Positions 6,911 through 60,960 of a DNA stretch of 64,000 nucleotides are shown here, in pieces. Position 1 is the stretch's first letter; each line of letters starts with the position of its first letter. Location: positions 35,944 through 99,943 of the forward strand of contig JAQVUX010000005.1 of the NCBI GenBank assembly GCA_028699255.1, written 5' to 3'. Both the position numbers and the translations under genes were made by a program. Below the pieces are notes generated by a model, which saw only the letters and a program-made list of their open reading frames with translations, made no database searches and had not been told where the DNA came from. The DNA comes from Candidatus Omnitrophota bacterium. GTDB lineage: Bacteria; Omnitrophota; Gorgyraeia; 2-01-FULL-45-10.

Positions 6911-7386
6911 TTTGAAGAAGTCGGCCTATAAGCCGGGTTCTGTCCGCCATATACCATTCGGCGCAATGCGCCTCAAATACATGACAGGATATTCATCTAT
7001 CTGGCCCCGCCATTACTGACGGGGTCTAGCGACCTTACCCGCCTCGACACCGACGTATTTTCGATAGGAGCGAGCAACTCCTGATTCGAGGCCTATTTGG
7101 TCTTGCTCCGCGCAGAGATTGCCTCGTTTCACCCTGTCCCGCTTTTGGCGAAACAGACTCGTCTCTGTGGCTCTTGCCGTCGTCAAAAACGACGGCACGC
7201 GCTATAACGCTTTGTCGACGTCAGAGACGTCGACATGCGCGGGCAATATCAGAGATATTGCCCAGCACAATCCTCACCTTTCGATGGGCGGTCGTTAACC
7301 GCTGCGCCGCTCTCCGGAGCCCGGACTTTCCTCCCTAACCCTTTACTTCCGTAAAGCGCAAGGCGAATATCCGGCCGGCTTCTTCA
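6911..7386 (-). ncRNA. rnpB: RNase P RNA, bacterial type A
   Basis: The minus strand carries GGGAGGAAAGTCCGGGCTCC (P4 5' half) near 7320-7340, AGGGTGAAACGAGG, and ACAGAACCCGGCTTATAGGCCGACTTCTTC near 6914-6945. The 3' P1 strand pairs with GAAGAAGCCGGCC at the 5' end. No ORF is required to explain this region. Confidence 0.9.
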
Positions 7387-44563: not shown

Positions 44564-44612
44564 CAACCGCGTAGGTTAACCATGCGTTGACCTCGAACAA
44601 CCTACGCGGTTG
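44564..44612. repeat. REP inverted pair (CAACCGCGTAGGTTA ... AACCTACGCGGTTG)
   Basis: Two 14-15 nt REP arms are separated by a 20-nt loop. The element lies between leuS and nfo and overlaps the nfo stop region. Confidence 0.8.
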
Positions 44613-45456
44613 TTTCGCGGTGCGCCAGTTTCCTCGCAACGGCCAAATTTCTTTTGTCGTCTTTTTCCGTTTCTTTCGGCGTTTCCATTATAAAGGCCGC
44701 GTGTTTTAATTTCGGATGGCGTATTATCCGGGATAGCGCCTGCTCACCTATATTGCCTTTGCCGATATGCTGATGCCTGTCGACATGTGAGCCGAAAGCG
44801 GACAGGCTGTCATTAAAATGTACAACTTTCACAGCGTCCAACCCTACTGCTTTATCAAGCTCCTTCAAAGTCCTATCCAAACCGGCCTTCGATCTTATAT
44901 CGTAACCGGCCTCAAACGTGTGGGCTGTGTCCAGACAAACGCCTAATTTATAATCGCCGCCCACATTATCTACTATACGCTTTATGTGCTCGAATTTGTA
45001 ACCGATCCATGAACCCGAGCCAGCGGTATTCTCTAAAAGTATCGTCGTCTTTGGTTTGGCGCGGCCTATTATCTCGCCCAGAGCATCGGAGAAGCGTCTT
45101 ATGCCGCTATCTTCCCCGCTCCCGACGTGGCTTCCGAGATGCGTAACAAAATATTCCGCGCCGAGCTGATCCGCGCGTTTAACATCTTCGATGTATGCCT
45201 CGATCGACATCTTGTACAATCGATCGTCGGGTGTAGCGAGATTTATGATATACGGTATATGAACTACTACCGGGCTTATATCGTATTTCGTTTTGAGCCG
45301 CGCGAACTCTTTTACATCCTCAGCGGCAAGCTTCGTTACCTGCCAGCCTCTCGGATTACGGCTGAATATCTGCATCGCGTCGCATCCTAACGCATGCGCC
45401 CTGTCGAGTGATTCGTAGATGTGTCCCGCGATGGATACGTGAACGCCGATACGCAT
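44602..45456 (-). CDS. nfo: endonuclease IV (AP endonuclease, TIM barrel)
   Basis: 284 aa with histidine-rich metal-binding motifs (VHIPYIINL, THLGSH, HFND). Confidence 0.9.
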   Translation of the reverse strand: MRIGVHVSIAGHIYESLDRAHALGCDAMQIFSRNPRGWQVTKLAAEDVKEFARLKTKYDISPVVVHIPYIINLATPDDRLYKMSIEAYIEDVKRADQLGAEYFVTHLGSHVGSGEDSGIRRFSDALGEIIGRAKPKTTILLENTAGSGSWIGYKFEHIKRIVDNVGGDYKLGVCLDTAHTFEAGYDIRSKAGLDRTLKELDKAVGLDAVKVVHFNDSLSAFGSHVDRHQHIGKGNIGEQALSRIIRHPKLKHAAFIMETPKETEKDDKRNLAVARKLAHRETTA

Positions 45457-45820: not shown

Positions 45821-45834
45821 CACGATTATGCATG

Positions 45835-45892
45835 TCAAAACAACCGCGTAGGTTATCTATGATTACCGCATGCAAACCTACGCGGTTGTTTT
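45835..45892. repeat. REP inverted pair forming a 19-bp stem hairpin
   Basis: CAAAACAACCGCGTAGGTT and its complement AACCTACGCGGTTGTTTTG are separated by a 20-nt loop, just 5' of tRNA-Leu. Confidence 0.8.
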
Positions 45893-46047
45893 GCAATACG
45901 GTTATTCCACAATATTCCTTGACGGAAAGTATAACACACCGCCGCCAATTCCTCAACTACAAACCGCCGCAATATTGCCACAACACCGCCACCTTGTCAA
46001 ACCGCCGCCTACACGCAACCGCGGAGGTTGGCCAGTTATTTCAGTCA

Positions 46048-46064
46048 GATAACCTACGCGGTTG
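46048..46064. repeat. solo REP copy (GATAACCTACGCGGTTG)
   Basis: An exact REP core lies 11 nt beyond the stop of the 1089-aa ORF. Confidence 0.7.
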
Positions 46065-46074
46065 TACCGACAGG

Positions 46075-49000
46075 TTACGCCGCGGACATCACGTTATCGC
46101 TTGCCATCTTATTAAACCGGCGTTTGTCATTATCCAATAATTTTGCGGTTGGCAGTTTGAATGGCACGCTTCGCACGAAATTATTGATATCGGCCTGGGA
46201 CTGCTCTTTCATGGATAACGGCCGGCGGGCAAGAAACTCAAATATTGCTTTTAGACGGCCAATATCATCCAGACGGCGAATTCTTAACGCAAGGATAATC
46301 CCCTCGGGTTGAACATCGTTTTGGCAAGGATCAAAGGCAAGCGCCCTTATACCAATGCCGCTATCCAGGACTTTGTTAACGATCTCCGTACTCGGACAAG
46401 CAACATCGAATTCCACCTCGTAACCCGGGTATTCTATCGCGTAATCAGCTCTCTTCCTATCGATCAATCTCTTCACCTCGTCCACAAAATCGGATGGGCC
46501 ACAAACCGGCAGTAAGGCAACCTTTTCGCCGCATTTCGCGTCCTTTTCCATCTCCTGCTGAAGCAGGGCCCTTAACATATCTCTTTGTATATAAGGAAAT
46601 ATTTCCTCCGCGGCTATATGGCACAGTATCGTTTTCGTTTTCCCGAGATCCTTTGGCCGATATTTTTTATTCTCTTCGTGTATCCGACCGGCCTCGGCAA
46701 CGGCAGAATCGGTTATAATAGCCGGTTGCCCGTTCGGCGTTCTGCGTACTGTGTTCTGGGTCATGCCCGCTTTGCCGCGCCCGGCCGCGGCTTCCGTTTC
46801 CCCTTGCCCCTGAACCTTTGACACTACCTGTCCCGCCTCCCTCTCCATGGGCAGGAGCCCATTTTCCGTCGGGGCGGCCTGTCTTACATGTACATGCGCC
46901 GGTGCATGCACATGTAGAAGAGCGTCATTATCATACGTCAATGGCTGATCCGACGGTTTTAAAGCGCCCGGCTTCTTCGGCTGTTTATAATAACGATTGC
47001 CATCTAAGGGCCCGCCATTCCCGAGCGGCCCGGGATCGGCGCCGGGGCCGTGGGGAAGATTAATATAACGGACACCGTCGAATTTACCGGAGGCGCGATC
47101 ATACATGGATATCGCGAAAGGGCGCTCGGAAAGTCGTATCATTCCCCCACTCCCTTCTTCATAAAATTGAACTACGAGATGCGCTTTTTCGGTCGTCAGA
47201 CACGCCCTGACACTGCCCGCCGGTCTTGCGGCACAAAAATTATCTCTTAACTCGATGGCCGCGAAAAGGATATGCGCCACCCCCGATAGTCCGACATCAT
47301 CGCCGGTATCTATAAACTGAATAGCGTCCGCACCGTCCATATACAGGGTGGCACTGCCGCATGGATATTCTATTTGGCGAAAATTTTTCTCAATCATCTC
47401 TGAAAGAATTTTCGCCAGTACTTCCCGCTCCCCGGGATTTCTGACCAAAGAATACGGTATATTTTCAAGTAAAGGCTGATTTCTTTCTTCCTCATTACTA
47501 TTATCAAGATAAAGGCTGAAAGTATACCCACCGGACTGATTCGTTTGTACAAAATGGGGATGCATTTTTTTAAATGTAACCCCGCCGGACAAGAGTAAAG
47601 GCGTTATGGTATCGATAAACTCATGGGTAGGCGCTCGCATATCTTCATCCAGAAGCGGCATATACATCAGAAATTTATACTGCGACTCTGCGCCGACGGC
47701 GTTGATATACGCAACCTGATAATCATAAGTTCCTCGCGCCACTACGTCCTGCCATCTCTCAGCCTTCTCTATCTTGTAGTCCAGATACTTTTCCTGTTCT
47801 AATACATCCAACACCATCATCTTGGCTAATACATACCTAAACTCATAGCTGTTCTTCTCCGAAAGTATAAATAAGTGCCTTATGCGCTGATGCAGATATT
47901 TGGCATTTAAAAAAGCTATTAGTTGCTCTAAGGCAATTTTAGTCTCATATTTCTGCCCAGGATCCATATCATAATTATATAAGTTGTCATGAGATTCTTT
48001 TAATAAACGATAAAAATCCGGTTCATATACTTGATCATTAATATCCGGATGAGAGACCTTCCGAAAGTGCTCATAGTTTTCCTCAAAAACTCCAACCATC
48101 CCGTCTTGATCATTTACAGGGATCGGCCTGATGAAATCCTCAAACTTTTTAAAGCAATCCGGAGGAAGCGCTTTCCTGAGAAAAGTAGTTTCTATCTTTC
48201 TTGGTTGAATAGGTATGTTGGAAGGGACGGATACGGCCGATGATAACGAATCTGTTAATCGAAGTATTATTTTAACAGCCCATCGGGAGTAGCTGGCAGG
48301 AAAAAATCGGCCCTGGAAAATTGTATCCGATATCCGGTAAGCCCGGGGATGATTATCGATCAACATCCGGCAGAATTTTTCACTTTCCAGTAAGCCTGAC
48401 ATGACGTCGTTTATTAGTACAAAAAATGCCATCGATACCACACTTAAAACGCCTCCTGCGGCGAAATCTAAAACCGGCGCTAACGCAAAAACCCCTGCCC
48501 TGCGTTCAAAATCGGACGGCCCCGTCCGCTCGCCGTATATTGCTTTCATCCTAACCGCGTAAGTATTACCGGAGGGATATTTGGGGTCAACTTCCTGACG
48601 AGAGGTTTCGTCCGCACGCCCGAACACTGACCGATCCGGCGACATTGAGTCGCCCTCAACCTCCGGCGGTCGTAAATATCGCCTGACGCCAGAGTTGCTC
48701 CCGGGGTCCGTCGGGCCGGGCAGGCCTTTAGGCATGTTGGCATAGGAAACCATTCGTGTATCGTCTGCCGAGTCACGCCTTTTGCGGAACCACAGCCCTT
48801 TGAGGCCGGGGAGATCCGTGGACTCGAGATTACGCCGGTCATCCGGAGTTTTAATTCCAAATTTTACCAACTCTTCGTGGGCAATATTTTCATAATCCTT
48901 TATAAAAAATAGATCAATCATCTTTCCGTCGTTCGCAAATTTAAAGGTAACGTATTTATAATCCTTCCCTGCCACCTTGCGGGATCGCCACGTTTCATCA

Positions 49001-49344
49001 ATAAACACGGATTGGTCGGGAAATAATTCGCTATTGAGGCGATTGATCGTTCTTCGAATAATCACATCGTCCGGAAGGTTCGGGGCCATAAATAATTTGC
49101 CCAGCGTATCGGCCGCCAAATTCAACTTCGCCCTGTATTTAAAATCTATTTCGTTTTTAATATCGAAAAGGGTGAAGCGGGATTGCGGGGCAAGTGTTGC
49201 CTGTTGCGGCGTTTGGACTTGCGGCGCCGCCCAGGATAGGTCGTTGAGCAGGAATAGGCAGACCAGGATTAGTGAGATTATTTTATATAGATTGCTTCGC
49301 CGCCACGCCTTAGGCGTATCGTCTCGCAATGACTTTTTATACAT
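46075..49344 (-). CDS. large orphan secreted or membrane-anchored protein (1089 aa) with no recognisable domain
   Basis: It has an N-terminal signal or anchor (IISLILVCLFLLNDLSWAAP) and a His-rich segment HVHAPAHVHV. No catalytic motif is identifiable by eye. Confidence 0.6.
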   Translation of the reverse strand: MYKKSLRDDTPKAWRRSNLYKIISLILVCLFLLNDLSWAAPQVQTPQQATLAPQSRFTLFDIKNEIDFKYRAKLNLAADTLGKLFMAPNLPDDVIIRRTINRLNSELFPDQSVFIDETWRSRKVAGKDYKYVTFKFANDGKMIDLFFIKDYENIAHEELVKFGIKTPDDRRNLESTDLPGLKGLWFRKRRDSADDTRMVSYANMPKGLPGPTDPGSNSGVRRYLRPPEVEGDSMSPDRSVFGRADETSRQEVDPKYPSGNTYAVRMKAIYGERTGPSDFERRAGVFALAPVLDFAAGGVLSVVSMAFFVLINDVMSGLLESEKFCRMLIDNHPRAYRISDTIFQGRFFPASYSRWAVKIILRLTDSLSSAVSVPSNIPIQPRKIETTFLRKALPPDCFKKFEDFIRPIPVNDQDGMVGVFEENYEHFRKVSHPDINDQVYEPDFYRLLKESHDNLYNYDMDPGQKYETKIALEQLIAFLNAKYLHQRIRHLFILSEKNSYEFRYVLAKMMVLDVLEQEKYLDYKIEKAERWQDVVARGTYDYQVAYINAVGAESQYKFLMYMPLLDEDMRAPTHEFIDTITPLLLSGGVTFKKMHPHFVQTNQSGGYTFSLYLDNSNEEERNQPLLENIPYSLVRNPGEREVLAKILSEMIEKNFRQIEYPCGSATLYMDGADAIQFIDTGDDVGLSGVAHILFAAIELRDNFCAARPAGSVRACLTTEKAHLVVQFYEEGSGGMIRLSERPFAISMYDRASGKFDGVRYINLPHGPGADPGPLGNGGPLDGNRYYKQPKKPGALKPSDQPLTYDNDALLHVHAPAHVHVRQAAPTENGLLPMEREAGQVVSKVQGQGETEAAAGRGKAGMTQNTVRRTPNGQPAIITDSAVAEAGRIHEENKKYRPKDLGKTKTILCHIAAEEIFPYIQRDMLRALLQQEMEKDAKCGEKVALLPVCGPSDFVDEVKRLIDRKRADYAIEYPGYEVEFDVACPSTEIVNKVLDSGIGIRALAFDPCQNDVQPEGIILALRIRRLDDIGRLKAIFEFLARRPLSMKEQSQADINNFVRSVPFKLPTAKLLDNDKRRFNKMASDNVMSAA

Positions 49345-49423
49345 AGCGAGAAGATTATAACATAGAATTATGTTAAAACAATATAAAGATAGCCATCTTT
49401 TTTCTACCTAACACTTTAACCCA

Positions 49424-49456
49424 TTCGACCTCCGAGGTGCGACCTCGGAGGTCGAA
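49424..49456. repeat. perfect 15-bp palindrome TTCGACCTCCGAGGT-gcg-ACCTCGGAGGTCGAA
   Basis: Seen directly in the sequence. A half-site copy (AGCGACCTCCGAGGTC) is also present at 52449-52466. Confidence 0.8.
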
Positions 49457-49467
49457 AATAACCATGT

Positions 49468-49506
49468 CAACCGCGTAGGTTACCGCGTAGGTTACCTACG
49501 CGGTTG
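49468..49506. repeat. REP cluster (two direct copies and one inverted copy) followed by a T7 run
   Basis: CAACCGCGTAGGTTA CCGCGTAGGTTA CCTACGCGGTTG ATTTTTTT, lying upstream of tRNA-Ala and the 1089-aa ORF. Confidence 0.8.
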
Positions 49507-49559
49507 ATTTTTTTAGTAGCTTGCTGGAGGAAGGTTGTGCTATACTATTTTTCCAAATT

Positions 49560-49633
49560 GGGGCTGTAGTGAAGAGGGATCACGACACAATGGCATTGTG
49601 TAGTCACGAGTTCGATTCTCGTCAGCTCCACCA
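49560..49633 (+). tRNA. tRNA-Ala (anticodon GGC) with the G3:U70 identity pair
   Basis: GGGGCTGTAGTGAAGAGGGATCACGACACAATGGCATTGTGTAGTCACGAGTTCGATTCTCGTCAGCTCCACCA folds as a cloverleaf. It has a 7-bp acceptor stem with G3:U70, a 4-nt variable loop and an encoded CCA. Confidence 0.75.
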
Positions 49634-52414: not shown

Positions 52415-52484
52415 ATTTTACGACTTGCCTCTCCTCCGCAGTCGCTAAAAAGCGACCTCCGAGGTCAATTTTACGGTCGCTCCT

Positions 52485-55013: not shown

Positions 55014-56453
55014 CTATTTACCTATACAGAACTGACCGAATATACGGTCGAGCATGTCGTCCGATACGGATTTACCTATTACCAGCCCAAGATTGAATAT
55101 AGCCTCTTTCAGGTCGATCGCCACAAGTTCAGGCGAGAGTTCCTCCCCTATCGCTCTTTTTACAGATAACATGGCGGACACCGCGTTGTCAAGCGCCTCC
55201 TTATGGCGCGCATTGCTTACAACCGCGCTCTCGCCCTGAACGTAACCGCCGCCTAAGACCGCGTCGCGTATCGCGCCCTCGAGCGCGTCAATATTGCGCC
55301 TGTCTTTCACGGATATTTCCACTACCGCATTATCGCCGAGAGCATTTTTTATACCGCTTAAAACGCGGCTTTCGGCCAAGTCGATCTTATTTAACACTAC
55401 TATCTTCTTTTTACCACCAACAAGATTAAGCATATCGCGATCCGCCCCGTCGAGCGGTGTCGAAGCATCGAACATTAGAATGGCGATATCCGACATATTA
55501 AGATACGACTTACTTTTCCTGACCCCTTCTTTCTCAAGCGCATCCCCGGCAGACGATATACCTGCAGTATCGACCAATCGTATCGGTACGCCATTCAAAT
55601 TTATGGTCTCCTCGACCGCGTCGCGCGTGGTCCCGGGTATCGGCGAGACGATAACCCTGTCTCTCTTTAGCAAGAGATTCATCAGGCTGGACTTCCCGAC
55701 ATTAGGCTTACCGCATATTATAGCGAGGACGCCCTCTCTGAACACCACACCGTTCTTGTAGCTTTTTGCCAGAAGCTCAAGTTCTTTTACTACGCTATCG
55801 GCCTTTTCCGCAAGCTCCTGCCGGCGGGGCAGTTCCAGCCCCTCTTCAGGGAAATCGATCGATGCCTCCACCTCGGCAGTTATATTCATAACCTTTTCCA
55901 GTATGGCGTTCACGTTCCTGGAGAGTTCACCCTCAAGCTGGCCCATCGCGACCTTTAAAGATCCTTCGGTCTTGGAGCGTATGACATCGAGGACGGCTTC
56001 GGCCTGCGACAGATCTATCCGGCCGTTGAGAAACGCCCGCCTGGTAAACTCGCCGGGCGCGGCGAGCCGGGCGCCGTGCTTTAAGACGAGCTCCATGACG
56101 CGCTCGAGGGCGCGTATGCCGGCGTGGCAATTTATCTCAACCACGTCTTCTTTTGTGTAGCTTCCGGGTGCGCGCATCACGGTAAGGATGACTTCGTCGA
56201 CAACCGCGCAGGTTGGCCGCGCGTTGCCCCGCCGATAAGGCGCGCGGTTATCTTTCGATTCACCATCGACTATGTGCCCATAATGCATCGTGTACGTTTT
56301 AAGCTTTAACGGCGCCTGGCCGTTTTTCGTCCGAAATAGCTCCGAGGCTATTTTTACCGCATCAGGCCCGCTTAAACGCACTATCCCTATCCCGCCCTCG
56401 CCGGGCGGAGTAGCTATAGCGACTATTGTTTCGGATTGGTCGTATCTACTCAT
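55014..56453 (-). CDS. mnmE: tRNA modification GTPase MnmE
   Basis: 479 aa with a G domain ([14 protein letters not shown]) and the C-terminal CIGK motif. Confidence 0.9.
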
Positions 56454-57753
56454 ATCTTAATTGTTTCGCTTCCCCTACCACAAAAAGTGAACCGGTAATT
56501 AACACAAGGTCTTCGGGCCCGGCGAATGATCTGGCGCTATCCACGGCTTCCGCTACCGTACCGGTAATATGGATATTTTTATAATCGGGCGGGATAAAAG
56601 ACCTTATCCTCTCCGGCTCCGCGGCCCTTTCCTTTATCGTTGCCTTTGTCAAAAACACTTCGTCCGCCAAAGGAAGAAGCTCGTCGAGAATGCCTTTTAT
56701 ATCCTTGTCGCCCGACACGCCGAGAACCAGAAAAAGTCGCTCATATTGAAACGCTCTTCTAACGGCTATCGCGAGCGCGTTCGCGCTGGCGCGGTTCTGG
56801 GCGCCGTCCAAAACAATCAGCGGACGCCGCGCCGCTACTTCCATCCGTCCCGGCCACTTTGCGCAGGCGATCCCGCGCTCCACCACATCTTTCCCTACTC
56901 TGATGCCGCGCATCGATAGCGCTTCGACAATCCCGACGGCAGTAGCCGCGTTAACAATCTGGTGTGCGCCCAAAAGAGACATCGTAAGCGCCGGATATTC
57001 GTTAACCAACCCATGCACTTTGAACACCTCCGATGAATCGTCGTGCTTAAGCTCTTCGAACTTCACGTCGCGCCCTATAAGGATAGCCTTTGCGCGCTTC
57101 TGGCCGCATATTTTCACAATAGCGTCGAGCGCCTCTTTCTCTTGCGGGGCTATTACACAAATCGAATCATCTTTTATTATCCCCGCCTTTTCGGAGGCAA
57201 TGCTCGTAAGTGTATTCCCGAGTTTATCGGTATGCTCGTAACTTATCGGCGTTATGCACGCGACGAGCGGTGCGAGTATATTGGTCGCGTCGAGGCGTCC
57301 CCCCAGGCCCGTCTCGAAGACGGCAAAGTCGACAGCTTTCTCTTTAAAATACAGGTACGCTAAAACGGTGCACACTTCAAATAGCGTCGGCGCTTCACCG
57401 CCCATCTTTTCCACGGCAGGACGTATTTGTGAAATGTGCCGCGCCACATCGCCTTCAGTAATAAGTTCACCGTTTATCATTATCCGCTCGCGGAATGAGA
57501 TCAGGTGGGGCGATGTGTATAGCCCGGTCTTAAAACCTGCTTCTTTTAAAATGGAATATGTGATAGCGCAGGTGGAACCTTTTCCTTTAGTCCCCGCTAT
57601 ATGGATGGATTTAAAACTTTTTTGCGGGTCGCCTATCTCCGAGGCAAGGCGCCGCATCCGGTCGAGCCGGAAGGAGCGCTCGTAATCATAACCATCGCGC
57701 TTTTCATAATTGACAAATGTATCGAGATATCGAAGAGCTTCTTCGTAAGTCAT
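56446..57753 (-). CDS. folC: bifunctional folylpolyglutamate synthase / dihydrofolate synthase
   Basis: 435 aa Mur-ligase-like protein with IHIAGTKGKGS. Confidence 0.85.
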   Translation of the reverse strand: MTYEEALRYLDTFVNYEKRDGYDYERSFRLDRMRRLASEIGDPQKSFKSIHIAGTKGKGSTCAITYSILKEAGFKTGLYTSPHLISFRERIMINGELITEGDVARHISQIRPAVEKMGGEAPTLFEVCTVLAYLYFKEKAVDFAVFETGLGGRLDATNILAPLVACITPISYEHTDKLGNTLTSIASEKAGIIKDDSICVIAPQEKEALDAIVKICGQKRAKAILIGRDVKFEELKHDDSSEVFKVHGLVNEYPALTMSLLGAHQIVNAATAVGIVEALSMRGIRVGKDVVERGIACAKWPGRMEVAARRPLIVLDGAQNRASANALAIAVRRAFQYERLFLVLGVSGDKDIKGILDELLPLADEVFLTKATIKERAAEPERIRSFIPPDYKNIHITGTVAEAVDSARSFAGPEDLVLITGSLFVVGEAKQLRYE

Positions 57754-57754
57754 C

Positions 57755-59332
57755 CTAGTGCTTAAAATGCCTGACCCCCGTAAAGACCATCGCTATGCCT
57801 AAACGGTCGGCCGCCTTTATCACTTCCGCGTCGCGGATCGATCCGCCCGGTTGTATTATAGCCGTGATGCCGCCCTGATGAGCCTGCTCGATCCCGTCTT
57901 CCTTCGGGAAGAACGCGTCGGACGCCAATGTCGAGCCGGAAGCTCTCTGGCCCGCTTTTTTGCACGCTATCATTACCGAATCGACCCGGGACATCTGGCC
58001 GGCGCCGACACCGACGGTCTTAGTGCCGCGGCAGAGCACGATAGCATTGGATTTTACATGTTTAGCCACCACCCAGCCGAATAGTAAGGACGCAAGCTCT
58101 TCCTTGGTCGGCTTAATTTTTGTAACGAATTTCAGATCCGACTCTTTAAGCGTTACAACGTCCCTATCCTGAATAAGCAGGCCTCCGACGACCTTTTTTA
58201 TATCCTTATCAAAATTGGCAGGCTTCGCGCCGAAATTCTTAACCTCGACCAGGCGCAGGTTCTTCTTTACTTTAAGCGATTCGAGCGCCTGCGCGTCATA
58301 GGATGGGGCGATTATGCACTCGACGAAATCCGCTTCTTCCAATATCGTTTTTGCTACCTCCGTATCGATGGGCCTGTTAAACCCTACGATACTGCCGAAG
58401 GCGCTCAGCCGGTCGCAATCGAGCGCGTCGATATATGCCTGCTTCAGGCTCGTAGACGTAGCCGTACCGCACGGATTGGTATGTTTTATTATGGTCGCGG
58501 CGGGTTCTTTGAACTCTTTGACTATCTCGAGCGCGGCATTAAGATCAATGATATTATTGAATGAAAGCTCTTTTCCGTGCAACTGCACGGCTCCGGAGAC
58601 GCTCGGCTCGGCAGACGCTTCATCTTTATAAAATGCCGCCTTCTGGTGCGGATTTTCGCCGTATCGCAGATCCTGTAGCTTCTTATACTTCAAATTCAAA
58701 ACTTGCGGGAACTCACCGGCAGGCTCCTGGCTCGACGCTGTCGCCCCTTGCCTTTGAAGATATTCGTATATCGCCGCGTCATACGTCGATGTCTTCTGGA
58801 ATACTTTGACACCAAGCTCGACCAGAAGAGCCTCCGCCACGCTACCGCCGGATTTTTCCATTTCGGCTATCACTCTGCCATAATCGGCAACGTCGCAGAT
58901 GACGCATACCGACCTGTGGTTCTTCGCCGCGCTCCTCAACATCGACGGCCCGCCTATGTCTATATTTTCTATCGCCTCTTCCAATTTGACGCCCGCTTTC
59001 GCGACCGTCTTCTCGAATGGATACAGGTTTACGACCACCATGTCTATGAGGCCGATGGCGTGTTTCTTTACGATATCCATGTGCTCTTTATTCTCACGCA
59101 GGGCGAGAAGCCCGCCATGTATCATCGGATGCAGGGTCTTGACCCTGCCGTCGAGCATCTCGGGAAAACCCGTATGCTCCGACACGTCTTTCACCGGTAT
59201 GCCGAGCGCCCTTATCGCTTTGGCGGTGCCGCCCGTCGACAATATTTCCACCCCGAATTTATTTAATGTCTTCGCGAGTATATCGAGACCCGTCTTATCG
59301 GATACGCTTATGAGCGCGCGTTTTATCTTCAT
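57755..59332 (-). CDS. purH: bifunctional AICAR transformylase / IMP cyclohydrolase
   Basis: 525 aa with an MGS-like N-terminus (RALISVSDKTGL) and a C-terminal AICARFT domain. Confidence 0.95.
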   Translation of the reverse strand: MKIKRALISVSDKTGLDILAKTLNKFGVEILSTGGTAKAIRALGIPVKDVSEHTGFPEMLDGRVKTLHPMIHGGLLALRENKEHMDIVKKHAIGLIDMVVVNLYPFEKTVAKAGVKLEEAIENIDIGGPSMLRSAAKNHRSVCVICDVADYGRVIAEMEKSGGSVAEALLVELGVKVFQKTSTYDAAIYEYLQRQGATASSQEPAGEFPQVLNLKYKKLQDLRYGENPHQKAAFYKDEASAEPSVSGAVQLHGKELSFNNIIDLNAALEIVKEFKEPAATIIKHTNPCGTATSTSLKQAYIDALDCDRLSAFGSIVGFNRPIDTEVAKTILEEADFVECIIAPSYDAQALESLKVKKNLRLVEVKNFGAKPANFDKDIKKVVGGLLIQDRDVVTLKESDLKFVTKIKPTKEELASLLFGWVVAKHVKSNAIVLCRGTKTVGVGAGQMSRVDSVMIACKKAGQRASGSTLASDAFFPKEDGIEQAHQGGITAIIQPGGSIRDAEVIKAADRLGIAMVFTGVRHFKH

Positions 59333-60152: not shown

Positions 60153-60195
60153 TTTTGCAACAAAACCACGTTTTAAGCGTCTATATAGTGAGGGG
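60153..60195 (+). promoter_or_regulatory. ECF-type promoter motif, copy 3, upstream of the RAYT gene
   Basis: GCAAC at 60157-60161, a 16-nt spacer, then CGTC at 60178-60181 followed by TATATAGTGAGGGG. The spacer sequence differs from copies 1 and 2 while the -35 and -10 elements are conserved. Confidence 0.55.
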
Positions 60196-60216
60196 ACAGT
60201 TAACAATTAAACCATT

Positions 60217-60267
60217 CAACCGCGTAGGTTACCGCGTAGGTTACCGCGTAGGTTACCTACGCGGTTG
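60217..60267. repeat. REP cluster 5' of the RAYT gene (three direct copies and one inverted copy)
   Basis: CAACCGCGTAGGTTA CCGCGTAGGTTA CCGCGTAGGTTA CCTACGCGGTTG, lying 14 nt before the RAYT ATG and inside its predicted 5' UTR. Confidence 0.85.
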
Positions 60268-60281
60268 ACAAGGAGGGCATT

Positions 60282-60896
60282 ATGATTTATCATATTTTTA
60301 ACAAAAGTATATCGAATTTTACAATATACAACGATGCTTTTGAGTACTTGCGGATGCTCACAGCTATTCAGTATTACCAATCAAATCCGGGGAAAACCAG
60401 TTTTTCGCGATTTATTAGTTTATTAGAAAAAGAAAAAACGCAAATTCCAACAGAAAATAAGATTGTTGATGTAATCGCGTATTGTCTTATGCCTACCCAC
60501 TTCCATTTCATCTTAAATGAACAAAAAGAAGGCGGAATAGCTTCTTTTACTAACAACCTGCTTAATAGCTATACTCGTTATTTCAATATAAAACATAATA
60601 GAAAAGGGCCTTTATGGCAGGGAAGATCCCGAAGGGTATTAGTAAAGACCGATGAACAACTGCTACACCTCACAAGATACATACATTTGAATCCTGTTAC
60701 GTCATATTTGGTTGACAACCCGGGGAAATGGCCATATTCCTCTTATGATGAGTATTTAAAAATACCAAAAGATCTACAGATATGTAAATATGCTGATTTA
60801 ATAGATATGCAACCAACAATATATATGAATTTCGTAACCGATAGAATTAATTATCAGCGAGAATTAGCAAAAATAAAGGACTTACTCCTTGAGTGA
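60282..60896 (+). mobile_element. REP-associated tyrosine transposase (RAYT; IS200/IS605 TnpA Y1 family)
   Basis: 204 aa with the HuH motif CLMPTHFHFIL and a catalytic Tyr in LTRYIHLNPV. An AGGAGGG RBS is present. The gene is flanked by inverted REP clusters and its coding sequence is AT-rich (about 33% GC). Confidence 0.85.
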
Positions 60897-60902
60897 CCTG
60901 TC

Positions 60903-60941
60903 AACCTACGCGGTAACCTACGCGGTTACCGCGTAGGTTGA
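60903..60941. repeat. REP cluster 3' of the RAYT gene (mirror image of the upstream cluster)
   Basis: CAACCTACGCGG TAACCTACGCGG TTACCGCGTAGGTTG. Confidence 0.85.
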
Positions 60942-60960
60942 TATAGGTTTTTATGGTTGA

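Follow-up and report, generated by a model that had tools for sequence, protein, structure and literature searches.

A RAYT-like transposase gene bracketed by short palindromic repeats in a Candidatus Omnitrophota genome

A transposase gene between two repeat arrays

We analysed a 64-kb stretch of contig JAQVUX010000005.1 from Candidatus Omnitrophota bacterium, here called the window, which carries one gene resembling those of REP-associated tyrosine transposases (RAYTs) and, around it, arrays of short repetitive extragenic palindromic (REP) sequences. An earlier note on this DNA had reported a RAYT gene with HuH and tyrosine motifs at 60282-60896, and we found the open reading frame (ORF) there to be intact, with both MPTHFHFIL and RYIHLNPV present in its 204 amino acids (aa). 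The locus is composed as follows.

60217-60267, plus strand: upstream REP array, CAA followed by three direct 12-nucleotide (nt) units, (CCGCGTAGGTTA)x3, and one inverted unit, CCTACGCGGTTG
60270-60276, plus strand: strong Shine-Dalgarno sequence AAGGAGG, 5 nt before the ATG, read from the sequence
60282-60896, plus strand: RAYT-like Y1/HuH transposase gene, intact ORF of 204 aa with an ATG start, GC 0.33
60899-60943, plus strand: downstream REP array, CAACCTACGCGG-TAACCTACGCGG-TTA-CCGCGTAGGTTG, two inverted units and one direct unit, starting 2 nt past the stop

The upstream array reads as previously described, with three direct units and one inverted unit, and ends 2 nt before the Shine-Dalgarno sequence. 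The downstream cluster had been taken for its mirror image; inverted units do lie there, but the cluster is one unit shorter, and its sequence differs from the reverse complement of the upstream array. On the plus strand, both clusters run from a tandem array into a hairpin with the strand of the unit swapped, and the loops of the two flanks are in inverted, not direct, orientation. Folded as single-stranded DNA, the upstream array reaches -20.9 kcal/mol (z -5.7) and the downstream array -24.7 kcal/mol (z -10.4), the latter with a stem of about 19-20 bp and a TACGC loop. The apex of the window repeat is AACC-GCGTA-GGTT, and the complete downstream hairpin can be written as CAACC-TACGCGGT-AACC (loop TACGC) GGTT-ACCGCGTA-GGTTG. 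A T-run follows the downstream array, which scores as an intrinsic terminator.

In most homologs, a hairpin occupies the same place as the upstream array, next to the ribosome-binding site. A regulatory effect of the upstream array, which the earlier note placed in a predicted 5' untranslated region that would allow autoregulation, is plausible because of this recurrence and because the array ends so close to the ribosome-binding site. The upstream hairpin of IS200 likewise abuts the ribosome-binding site, and the left-end stem-loops of that element limit transcription and translation. The best sigma-70 match, TTGACA-17-TATCAT at 60265-60293, places its -10 element within the coding sequence, and upstream of the array there are weaker sigma-70 matches only. 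As a separate observation, TTGACA (the sigma-70 -35 consensus) recurs where a REP end meets its flank (GGTTGACA), at 60265-60270, at 60898-60903 and 49467-49472 (both minus strand), and likewise at several REPs of other metagenome-assembled genomes (MAGs).

Copies of the repeat elsewhere in the window

The 12-nt unit CCGCGTAGGTTA has 15 matches in the window at up to one mismatch against 0.29 expected, a count reached by none of 100 shuffled sequences, and the 15-nt core CAACCGCGTAGGTTG has 17 matches at up to three mismatches against 1.22 expected. Beyond the two arrays at the gene, the matches fall at the following places, for which no strand is assigned.

44564-44612: inverted REP doublet, spacer 19 nt, flanked by leuS and the nfo-like gene
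45841-45888: inverted REP doublet, spacer 18 nt, directly upstream of the minus-strand tRNA-Leu
46016-46064: inverted REP doublet, spacer 19 nt, just beyond the stop of a 1089-aa ORF
49468-49506: array of two direct REP units and an inverted one, with the start of the 1089-aa ORF on one side and tRNA-Ala on the other
56201-56215: REP-like 15-mer CAACCGCGCAGGTTG with one mismatch, inside the mnmE coding sequence, membership uncertain

Five further REP loci had been proposed. Those at 44564-44612, 45841-45888, and 49468-49506 stand, and the one at 46050-46064 is also an inverted doublet because it has a degenerate partner at 46016-46030 (CAACCGCGGAGGTTG, in which GTAG has become GGAG) that had been missed; four loci are therefore extragenic, and the fifth match is intragenic. 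The neighbours named earlier (leuS, the nfo-like gene, tRNA-Leu, tRNA-Ala, and the orphan 1089-aa ORF) were confirmed. The mnmE match is a small palindrome in the region encoding the N-terminal domain, and a chance match at one mismatch is very unlikely.

The window REPs are short, palindromic, multicopy, extragenic repeats. Every REP locus folds as single-stranded DNA into a long hairpin (-14 to -24.7 kcal/mol, z -4 to -10.4 against its own shuffles), and the four extragenic loci away from the gene form hairpins of 14-20 bp. The stem of the doublet at 45841-45888 extends over 45836-45893 (-23 kcal/mol, z -8.5). A scan of the REP loci against Rfam matched no RNA family. The 15-mer cores carry zero or one mismatch, internal tandem units are identical except for the junction bases, and the arrays differ in unit number (3+1, 2+1, and 2+1), which suggests ongoing turnover. 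One repeat has become part of a gene: the nfo-like ORF (44602-45456, minus strand) ends ...HRETTA* within the right REP arm at 44598-44612, where the TAG of the GTAG is the stop codon and the last three codons also come from the arm.

The tetranucleotide GTAG lies at the apex of single units, formed by the loop GCGTA and the first bases of the 3' stem, and in mid-stem in doublets. The tandem arrays also contain a GTAG that precedes a hairpin (stem 10 bp, loop 3 nt) by 3 nt. This is a near miss of the canonical REP definition, in which GT[AG]G precedes the foot of the hairpin on its 5' side by 0-2 nt, the stem has 7-20 bp, and the loop has 2-5 nt (Quentin 2018, PMC6006769; Di Nocera 2013).

The transposase resembles TnpA_REP of Escherichia coli

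The 204-aa protein barely passes the Pfam Y1_Tnp model (23.8 bits against a cut-off of 23), which does not discriminate between RAYTs and IS200 because it covers both IS200 TnpA and RAYTs. REP_Tyr_transpos is the sole NCBIfam match (E 3.7e-16, 59.3 bits), as it is in 28 of the 28 family members that we aligned. No NCBIfam model of the insertion sequence (IS) group IS200/IS605 was matched by the 204-aa protein at E values up to 0.1, and none was matched among the 28 relatives. The model checks that had been suggested thus came out on the side of a Y1 transposase of RAYT type, with the score of the RAYT model falling below its cut-off of 80 bits.

The best match in the PDB by sequence is 4ER8, the E. 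coli TnpA_REP (E 0.0034 for the single sequence and 5.8e-6 for the family profile). In the alignment, the HuH histidines H73 and H75 pair with H59 and H61 of 4ER8, W112 and Q113 with W94 and Q95, the catalytic Y133 with Y115, and N137 with N119, so that the HuH, Tyr, and Asn residues on which the RAYT assignment depended are at their catalytic positions. All residues invariant across the 28 family members are kept in the 204-aa protein, including the HuH histidines, Y133, and N137. An AlphaFold2 model built on the family alignment has a predicted local distance difference test score of 85.4 and a predicted template-modelling (TM) score of 0.82. The top Foldseek match of this model in the PDB is 4er8_A (E 8e-5, TM 0.63 on the target), followed by the IS608 and ISDra2 transposases, and 4ER8 outranks every IS TnpA by sequence and by fold. 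Residues 154-203 (about 50 aa) are modelled as helices, are conserved in the family, and lie beyond the part aligned with 4ER8. The protein is thus predicted to be a single-domain HuH/Y1 nuclease-ligase akin to E. coli TnpA_REP, with an extra conserved C-terminal helical region.

Homologs carry flanking hairpins with a common apex

We found 3,695 proteins related to the 204-aa protein at E 1e-3 or better; relatives with a source name carry Omnitrophota or Omnitrophica labels, with one Elusimicrobia. By sequence, the family consists of divergent RAYT relatives that are annotated just as 'transposase'. The window has one copy of the gene. Its product is the sole member, from a single contig, of a 90%-identity cluster, and a search of 5.8 billion proteins gave 59% identity for the next relative. 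In a plasmid collection, the relatives are all below 42% identity.

Eighty metagenome loci with relatives of 47-58% identity were examined, in subsets of 75, 52, or 37 depending on the analysis. Perfect stems of at least 9 bp occur in 42% of the upstream flanks (110 nt) and 46% of the downstream flanks (95 nt), compared with 2% of controls, which were 1,228 windows of the same homolog loci. The apex motif ACC-N5-GGT is found in the flanks of 54 of 75 loci and in 4.4% of control windows. The 5' arm ends in three strongly conserved bases (A 91%, C 95%, C 89%), the lower stem varies between loci, and some 9-12 nt further down the arm there is another ACC-like motif. The downstream hairpin of the window fits this two-ACC architecture; its 12-nt periodicity arises because the lower stem happens to repeat the apex sequence. 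Among the loops of homolog hairpins, TCGTA, GCGTA, and their complements predominate, which puts CGTAG across the loop and into the 3' stem.

The hairpins are oriented with respect to the gene: the coding strand tends to carry GTAG in upstream hairpins and CTAC in downstream ones (16:7 versus 4:12, Fisher p 0.0095), which is also the arrangement in the window. The flanking hairpins are direct, not inverted, in 11 of 37 comparable loci. Some loci carry extra copies of the hairpin, up to nine in one case (L200). Loop type has a negligible relation to protein identity (54.5% for pairs with the same loop, 53.7% for the rest). Tandem arrays were considered as a family trait and rejected, since besides the window only one locus (L181, 13 nt x3.8) has a clear array; two-copy repeats lie beside the gene in a few others.

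The gene is AT-rich, as had been noted (GC 0.33 against 0.48 for the window), and at third codon positions its GC (GC3) is 0.31; the neighbouring genes have GC 0.48-0.53 and GC3 0.50-0.66. The earlier note took this as a sign of recent acquisition or of strongly AT-biased codon use. We rejected the inference of recent acquisition: among 52 homolog loci with sufficient flanking sequence, 51 have a gene richer in AT than the DNA around it, the mean offset is 9.3 points, and because the offset is family-wide, low GC is no evidence of recent arrival. Gene GC follows flank GC across the homolog loci (r 0.80, slope 0.58), and the window, with an offset of about 17-20 points, exceeds the family average. 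Possible causes of the family-wide offset are a codon-level bias that keeps expression low and frequent exchange between hosts.

The repeat core recurs in other species

We scanned one genome per species (596 Gb) for the 14-mer CAACCGCGTAGGTT and obtained at least 120 matches, which are a sample and no census. Among the matches listed, 17 belong to MAGs labelled Omnitrophota (at least ten) or Elusimicrobia (two), at loci with a GC content of 37-51%; the other listed matches are single occurrences in unrelated taxa, as chance predicts for a 14-mer in 596 Gb. The core occurs in two settings. It either forms a hairpin apex above a lower stem with compensatory changes (AACCGTGT/ACACGGTT, ACCAGTAC/GTACTGGT, and AACCATTA/TAATGGTT) or lies mid-stem in perfect doublet hairpins of 20-27 bp. 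Several contigs of other Omnitrophota MAGs have the 14-mer and no RAYT gene, among them four contigs of the MAG PPR_0461, which carry doublets. The core also lies on both sides of a homolog of 52% identity in L062, from a MAG labelled Endomicrobiales, and the two flanks are inverted there just as they are in the window.

The 15-nt core CAACCGCGTAGGTTG is kept unchanged in ten or more species that carry the labels of two phyla, and the stems around it change by compensatory substitutions; 'two phyla' rests on record labels, because MAG binning could mislabel contigs. We also noticed that in eight loci with the identical 15-nt core (L019, L027, L079, L100 of PPR_0461, L053, L088, L083, and L062) the other stem positions vary yet stay complementary. 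Template switching at quasipalindromes could yield complementary stem variation without selection, and selection for hairpin formation is an alternative possibility.

Comparison with known systems

REP/RAYT systems have been characterised mainly in Proteobacteria. Our literature search found no link between Omnitrophota and REPs or IS200 and no description of this divergent family.

TnpA_REP of E. coli K-12 (RAYT, YafM; 4ER8) is the closest characterised relative, being the best match in both sequence and fold and having counterparts of the HuH, W, Q, Y, and N residues, although identity to the 204-aa protein is just about 15-20%. Its gene is also single, bracketed by its own palindromic repeats, with further copies in extragenic DNA (here, within the 64-kb window). 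The E. coli enzyme acts as a monomer, binds the REP hairpin together with GTAG, and cuts at CT (Messing et al. 2012, PMC3479197). It needs GTAG at the 5' foot of the hairpin, which is contacted by E100, H101, and R104 (PMC3479197, PMC6006769), whereas the GTAG of the Omnitrophota repeats spans the loop and 3' stem at the apex. The C terminus is a short inhibitory tail in E. coli and the conserved helical region of about 50 aa in the 204-aa protein, and the repeat core measures about 35 nt in E. coli and 15 nt in the window.

In Pseudomonas fluorescens SBW25, as in the window, a single-copy RAYT gene has the same repeats in its flanks, the flanking k-mers are over-represented, and inverted REP doublets form long hairpins (in the window at 44564-44612, 45841-45888, and 46016-46064). 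These doublets (REPINs) replicate as whole units with a conserved spacer (Bertels & Rainey 2011, PMC3116915; Bertels et al. 2017, PMC5581495), whereas the window doublets are alike in spacer length (18-19 nt) and not in spacer sequence. The window further differs in a copy density that appears low and local, and in the 12-nt tandem arrays beside the gene, which are rare even among its homologs.

The RAYT-like proteins of TnpA_Y1 subclass 2.6 and class 3 have atypical flanking hairpins that lack the canonical 5' GT[AG]G and were found by manual inspection (PMC6006769). They share with the family described here the non-canonical flanks and, in some members, C-terminal extensions. Subclass 2.6 was reported chiefly from Bacteroidetes, and class 3 from Planctomycetes and Acidobacteria (PMC6006769). 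The distance from HuH to Tyr is 60 aa in the 204-aa protein, which is typical of most subclasses, compared with a median of 82 aa in subclass 2.6; this comparison was made by description.

The TnpA proteins of IS200, IS608, and ISDra2 have the same Y1 HuH fold, and hairpins lie near both ends of their genes. The IS200/IS605 group differs in that none of its NCBIfam models is matched, that the window has dispersed hairpins free of a gene and inverted flank loops, and that the gene is present in one copy (in the window, and as one sequence in its 90% cluster). At 60228-60257, the junction of the 12-nt units reads TTAC (GGTTAC followed by CGCG), the target tetranucleotide of IS608, possibly by coincidence. 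The TnpA of IS608 cuts and inserts after TTAC; if the junction is not a coincidence, the 12-nt unit would equal the spacing of two cleavage sites.

A probable REP/RAYT system and its alternatives

The locus is very probably a REP/RAYT system of the known kind, because the fold, catalytic residues, bracketing repeats, gene-free copies, and the single gene copy of the window all fit described RAYT features (PMC5581495, PMC6006769); the hairpin potential, the flanking hairpins throughout the family, and the dispersed copies were computed as well. Binding, cleavage, mobilisation, and recognition of the apex are inferred, and the mechanism is drawn by analogy. As TnpA_REP and the IS608 and ISDra2 TnpA proteins do, the protein would bind the hairpins of its cognate repeats in single-stranded DNA. 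Tyr133 would then cut, with the metal held by His73 and His75, and become joined to the DNA through a 5'-phosphotyrosine link. Rejoining of the strands would spread, amplify, or remove REP units and doublets in extragenic DNA, and the gene would stay single-copy between its own REP arrays. The sequence-specific contact would probably be made at the hairpin apex (ACC-N5-GGT), compared with the GTAG at the 5' foot in E. coli.

Several findings weigh against a REP/RAYT system. The score of 59.3 bits is below the 80-bit equivalog cut-off of NCBIfam NF047646, and the protein is for that reason a divergent relative and no textbook RAYT. The E. coli GTAG contacts E100, H101, and R104 (residue list from PMC6006769) are R118, V119, and K122 in the 204-aa protein and so are not kept, and the canonical GT[AG]G 0-2 nt 5' of the hairpin foot was not found at the window REPs. 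The repeat loci are few and local: all of them lie at 44.5-61 kb, with none in the first 44 kb of the window. The four gene-free loci are within 16 kb of the gene and span 4.9 kb, with an approximate chance probability of 0.002. Among homolog loci of at least 5 kb, 26 of 37 have no extra copies more than 250 nt from the gene (up to 5 kb per side). Finally, the spacers of the three doublets (19, 18, and 19 nt) are unrelated in sequence, unlike what whole-unit copying of REPINs gives, and the doublets are for this reason not copies of one whole doublet. In sum, the system, as far as its sequence tells, differs from canonical RAYT/REP pairs in the apical GTAG, the contact residues, the C terminus, the very short core, the 12-nt arrays, and the score below cut-off.

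There is a more specific proposal, which we hold tentatively and consider rather doubtful: that a distinct RAYT clade across Omnitrophota and Elusimicrobia reads the hairpin apex (ACC-N5-GGT, with GTAG in the loop) and not a GTAG at the 5' foot. The unchanged 15-nt core within compensating stems in other species points in this direction. Units of as little as 12 nt, with TTAC at their borders, may also be enough for the enzyme, which would explain both the tandem arrays and the doublets that are alike in arms and spacer length and not in spacer sequence. If this is true, the mobile or recombining unit would be far smaller than a REPIN, and the spread of REPs would be local.

The main rival to the REP/RAYT reading is an autonomous element of IS200/IS605 type with tnpA only, in which the hairpins are the element's ends, the gene moves along with them, and the gene-free hairpins are solo ends or derivatives similar to miniature inverted-repeat transposable elements. 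Fold and chemistry are those of the IS608 and ISDra2 TnpA proteins, and in one homolog locus (L172, 1428-2299) the gene stands between purH and an orf435 homolog with the same 50-nt doublet on each side in direct orientation. Since purH and orf435 abut in the window (57753-57755), the unit occupies different sites in a conserved operon over long time spans, as an insertion of doublet, gene, and doublet would. The direct flanks of the 11 loci noted above, as at IS200/IS605 ends, the restriction of hairpins to the gene in the 26 loci, and the AT shift relative to the host, which is frequent in mobile genes, also favour such an element. It nevertheless seems improbable to us: the RAYT model is the sole NCBIfam match in every aligned member, with no match to IS200/IS605 models, and 4ER8 ranks above every IS TnpA. 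The gene is single in the window and its close relatives are absent from the protein collection, whereas gene-free copies of the repeat outnumber it both in the window and in other MAGs, and the flank loops of the window are inverted.

It would be more surprising still if the REP/RAYT system were a fossil that is no longer active, with its hairpins persisting as host terminators or stabilisers of mRNA. The low copy number, the degenerate arm at 46016-46030, the terminator-like T-run of the downstream array, and the arm that supplies the stop codon of the nfo-like ORF are what such decay and co-option would leave. The ORF is full-length, however, with all family-invariant residues kept, the cores and internal tandem units are nearly identical, and the varying unit numbers speak for turnover. 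We give scarcely any credence to the idea that the hairpins are regulatory or terminator elements of the host, unrelated to the transposase and around its gene by coincidence. All copies are extragenic or at the ends of genes and one has a terminator-like T-run, but the T-run is absent from most copies, homologs on dozens of unrelated contigs have flanking hairpins with the shared apex signature, 10 to 20 times as often as controls, and the identical 14-mer brackets the 52%-identical homolog in L062.

The partnership of gene and repeat is thereby seen in an uncultivated phylum and in a large family (more than 3,600 protein clusters), for which the ACC-N5-GGT apex offers a simple, testable DNA signature. 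The 15-nt core and the 12-nt units are a compact set of substrates with which apex recognition by a RAYT could be compared with recognition of a 5' guide tetranucleotide. For annotation, such 'transposase' genes in MAGs are better called RAYT-like, and their low GC is not to be read as recent transfer.

Neighbourhood and further repeats

The neighbours of the repeats and the gene in the window are leuS, an AP-endonuclease-2 gene (nfo-like), tRNA-Leu, the 1089-aa ORF, tRNA-Ala, purH, a gpmA-like gene, and a radical-SAM gene (hemW-like). The 1089-aa ORF (46075-49344) has no Pfam match. Within 45822-49560 it shows a GC3 of 0.50, compared with about 0.62 in most neighbours, and REP loci lie on both sides of it together with tRNA-Leu and tRNA-Ala. 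The four gene-free REP loci cluster around this ORF, and the region may have been inserted, or may be preferred as a target. Three homolog loci (L177, L165, and L156) have single neighbour genes in common with the window (gpmA-like and orf300), arranged otherwise.

A second palindrome, (C)GACC-TCCGA-GGT(C/G), has six strand-matches in the window against 0.95 expected.

49424-49458, no strand assigned: inverted doublet of the second palindrome, CGACC-TCCGA-GGTG / CGACC-TCGGA-GGTCG, 10 nt from the REP array
52454-52466, no strand assigned: single intergenic copy of the second palindrome type, GACCTCCGAGGTC

Its sequence agrees with the ACC-N5-GGT apex, and RAYT homologs in two metagenome loci (L139 and L141) have this loop in their flanks. 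The palindrome may represent another type of REP, with its cognate gene somewhere beyond the window.

Two housekeeping features were also recorded.

6913-7382, minus strand: RNase P RNA, bacterial class A, 183 bits
8584-9011: tRNA-Val and tRNA-Met

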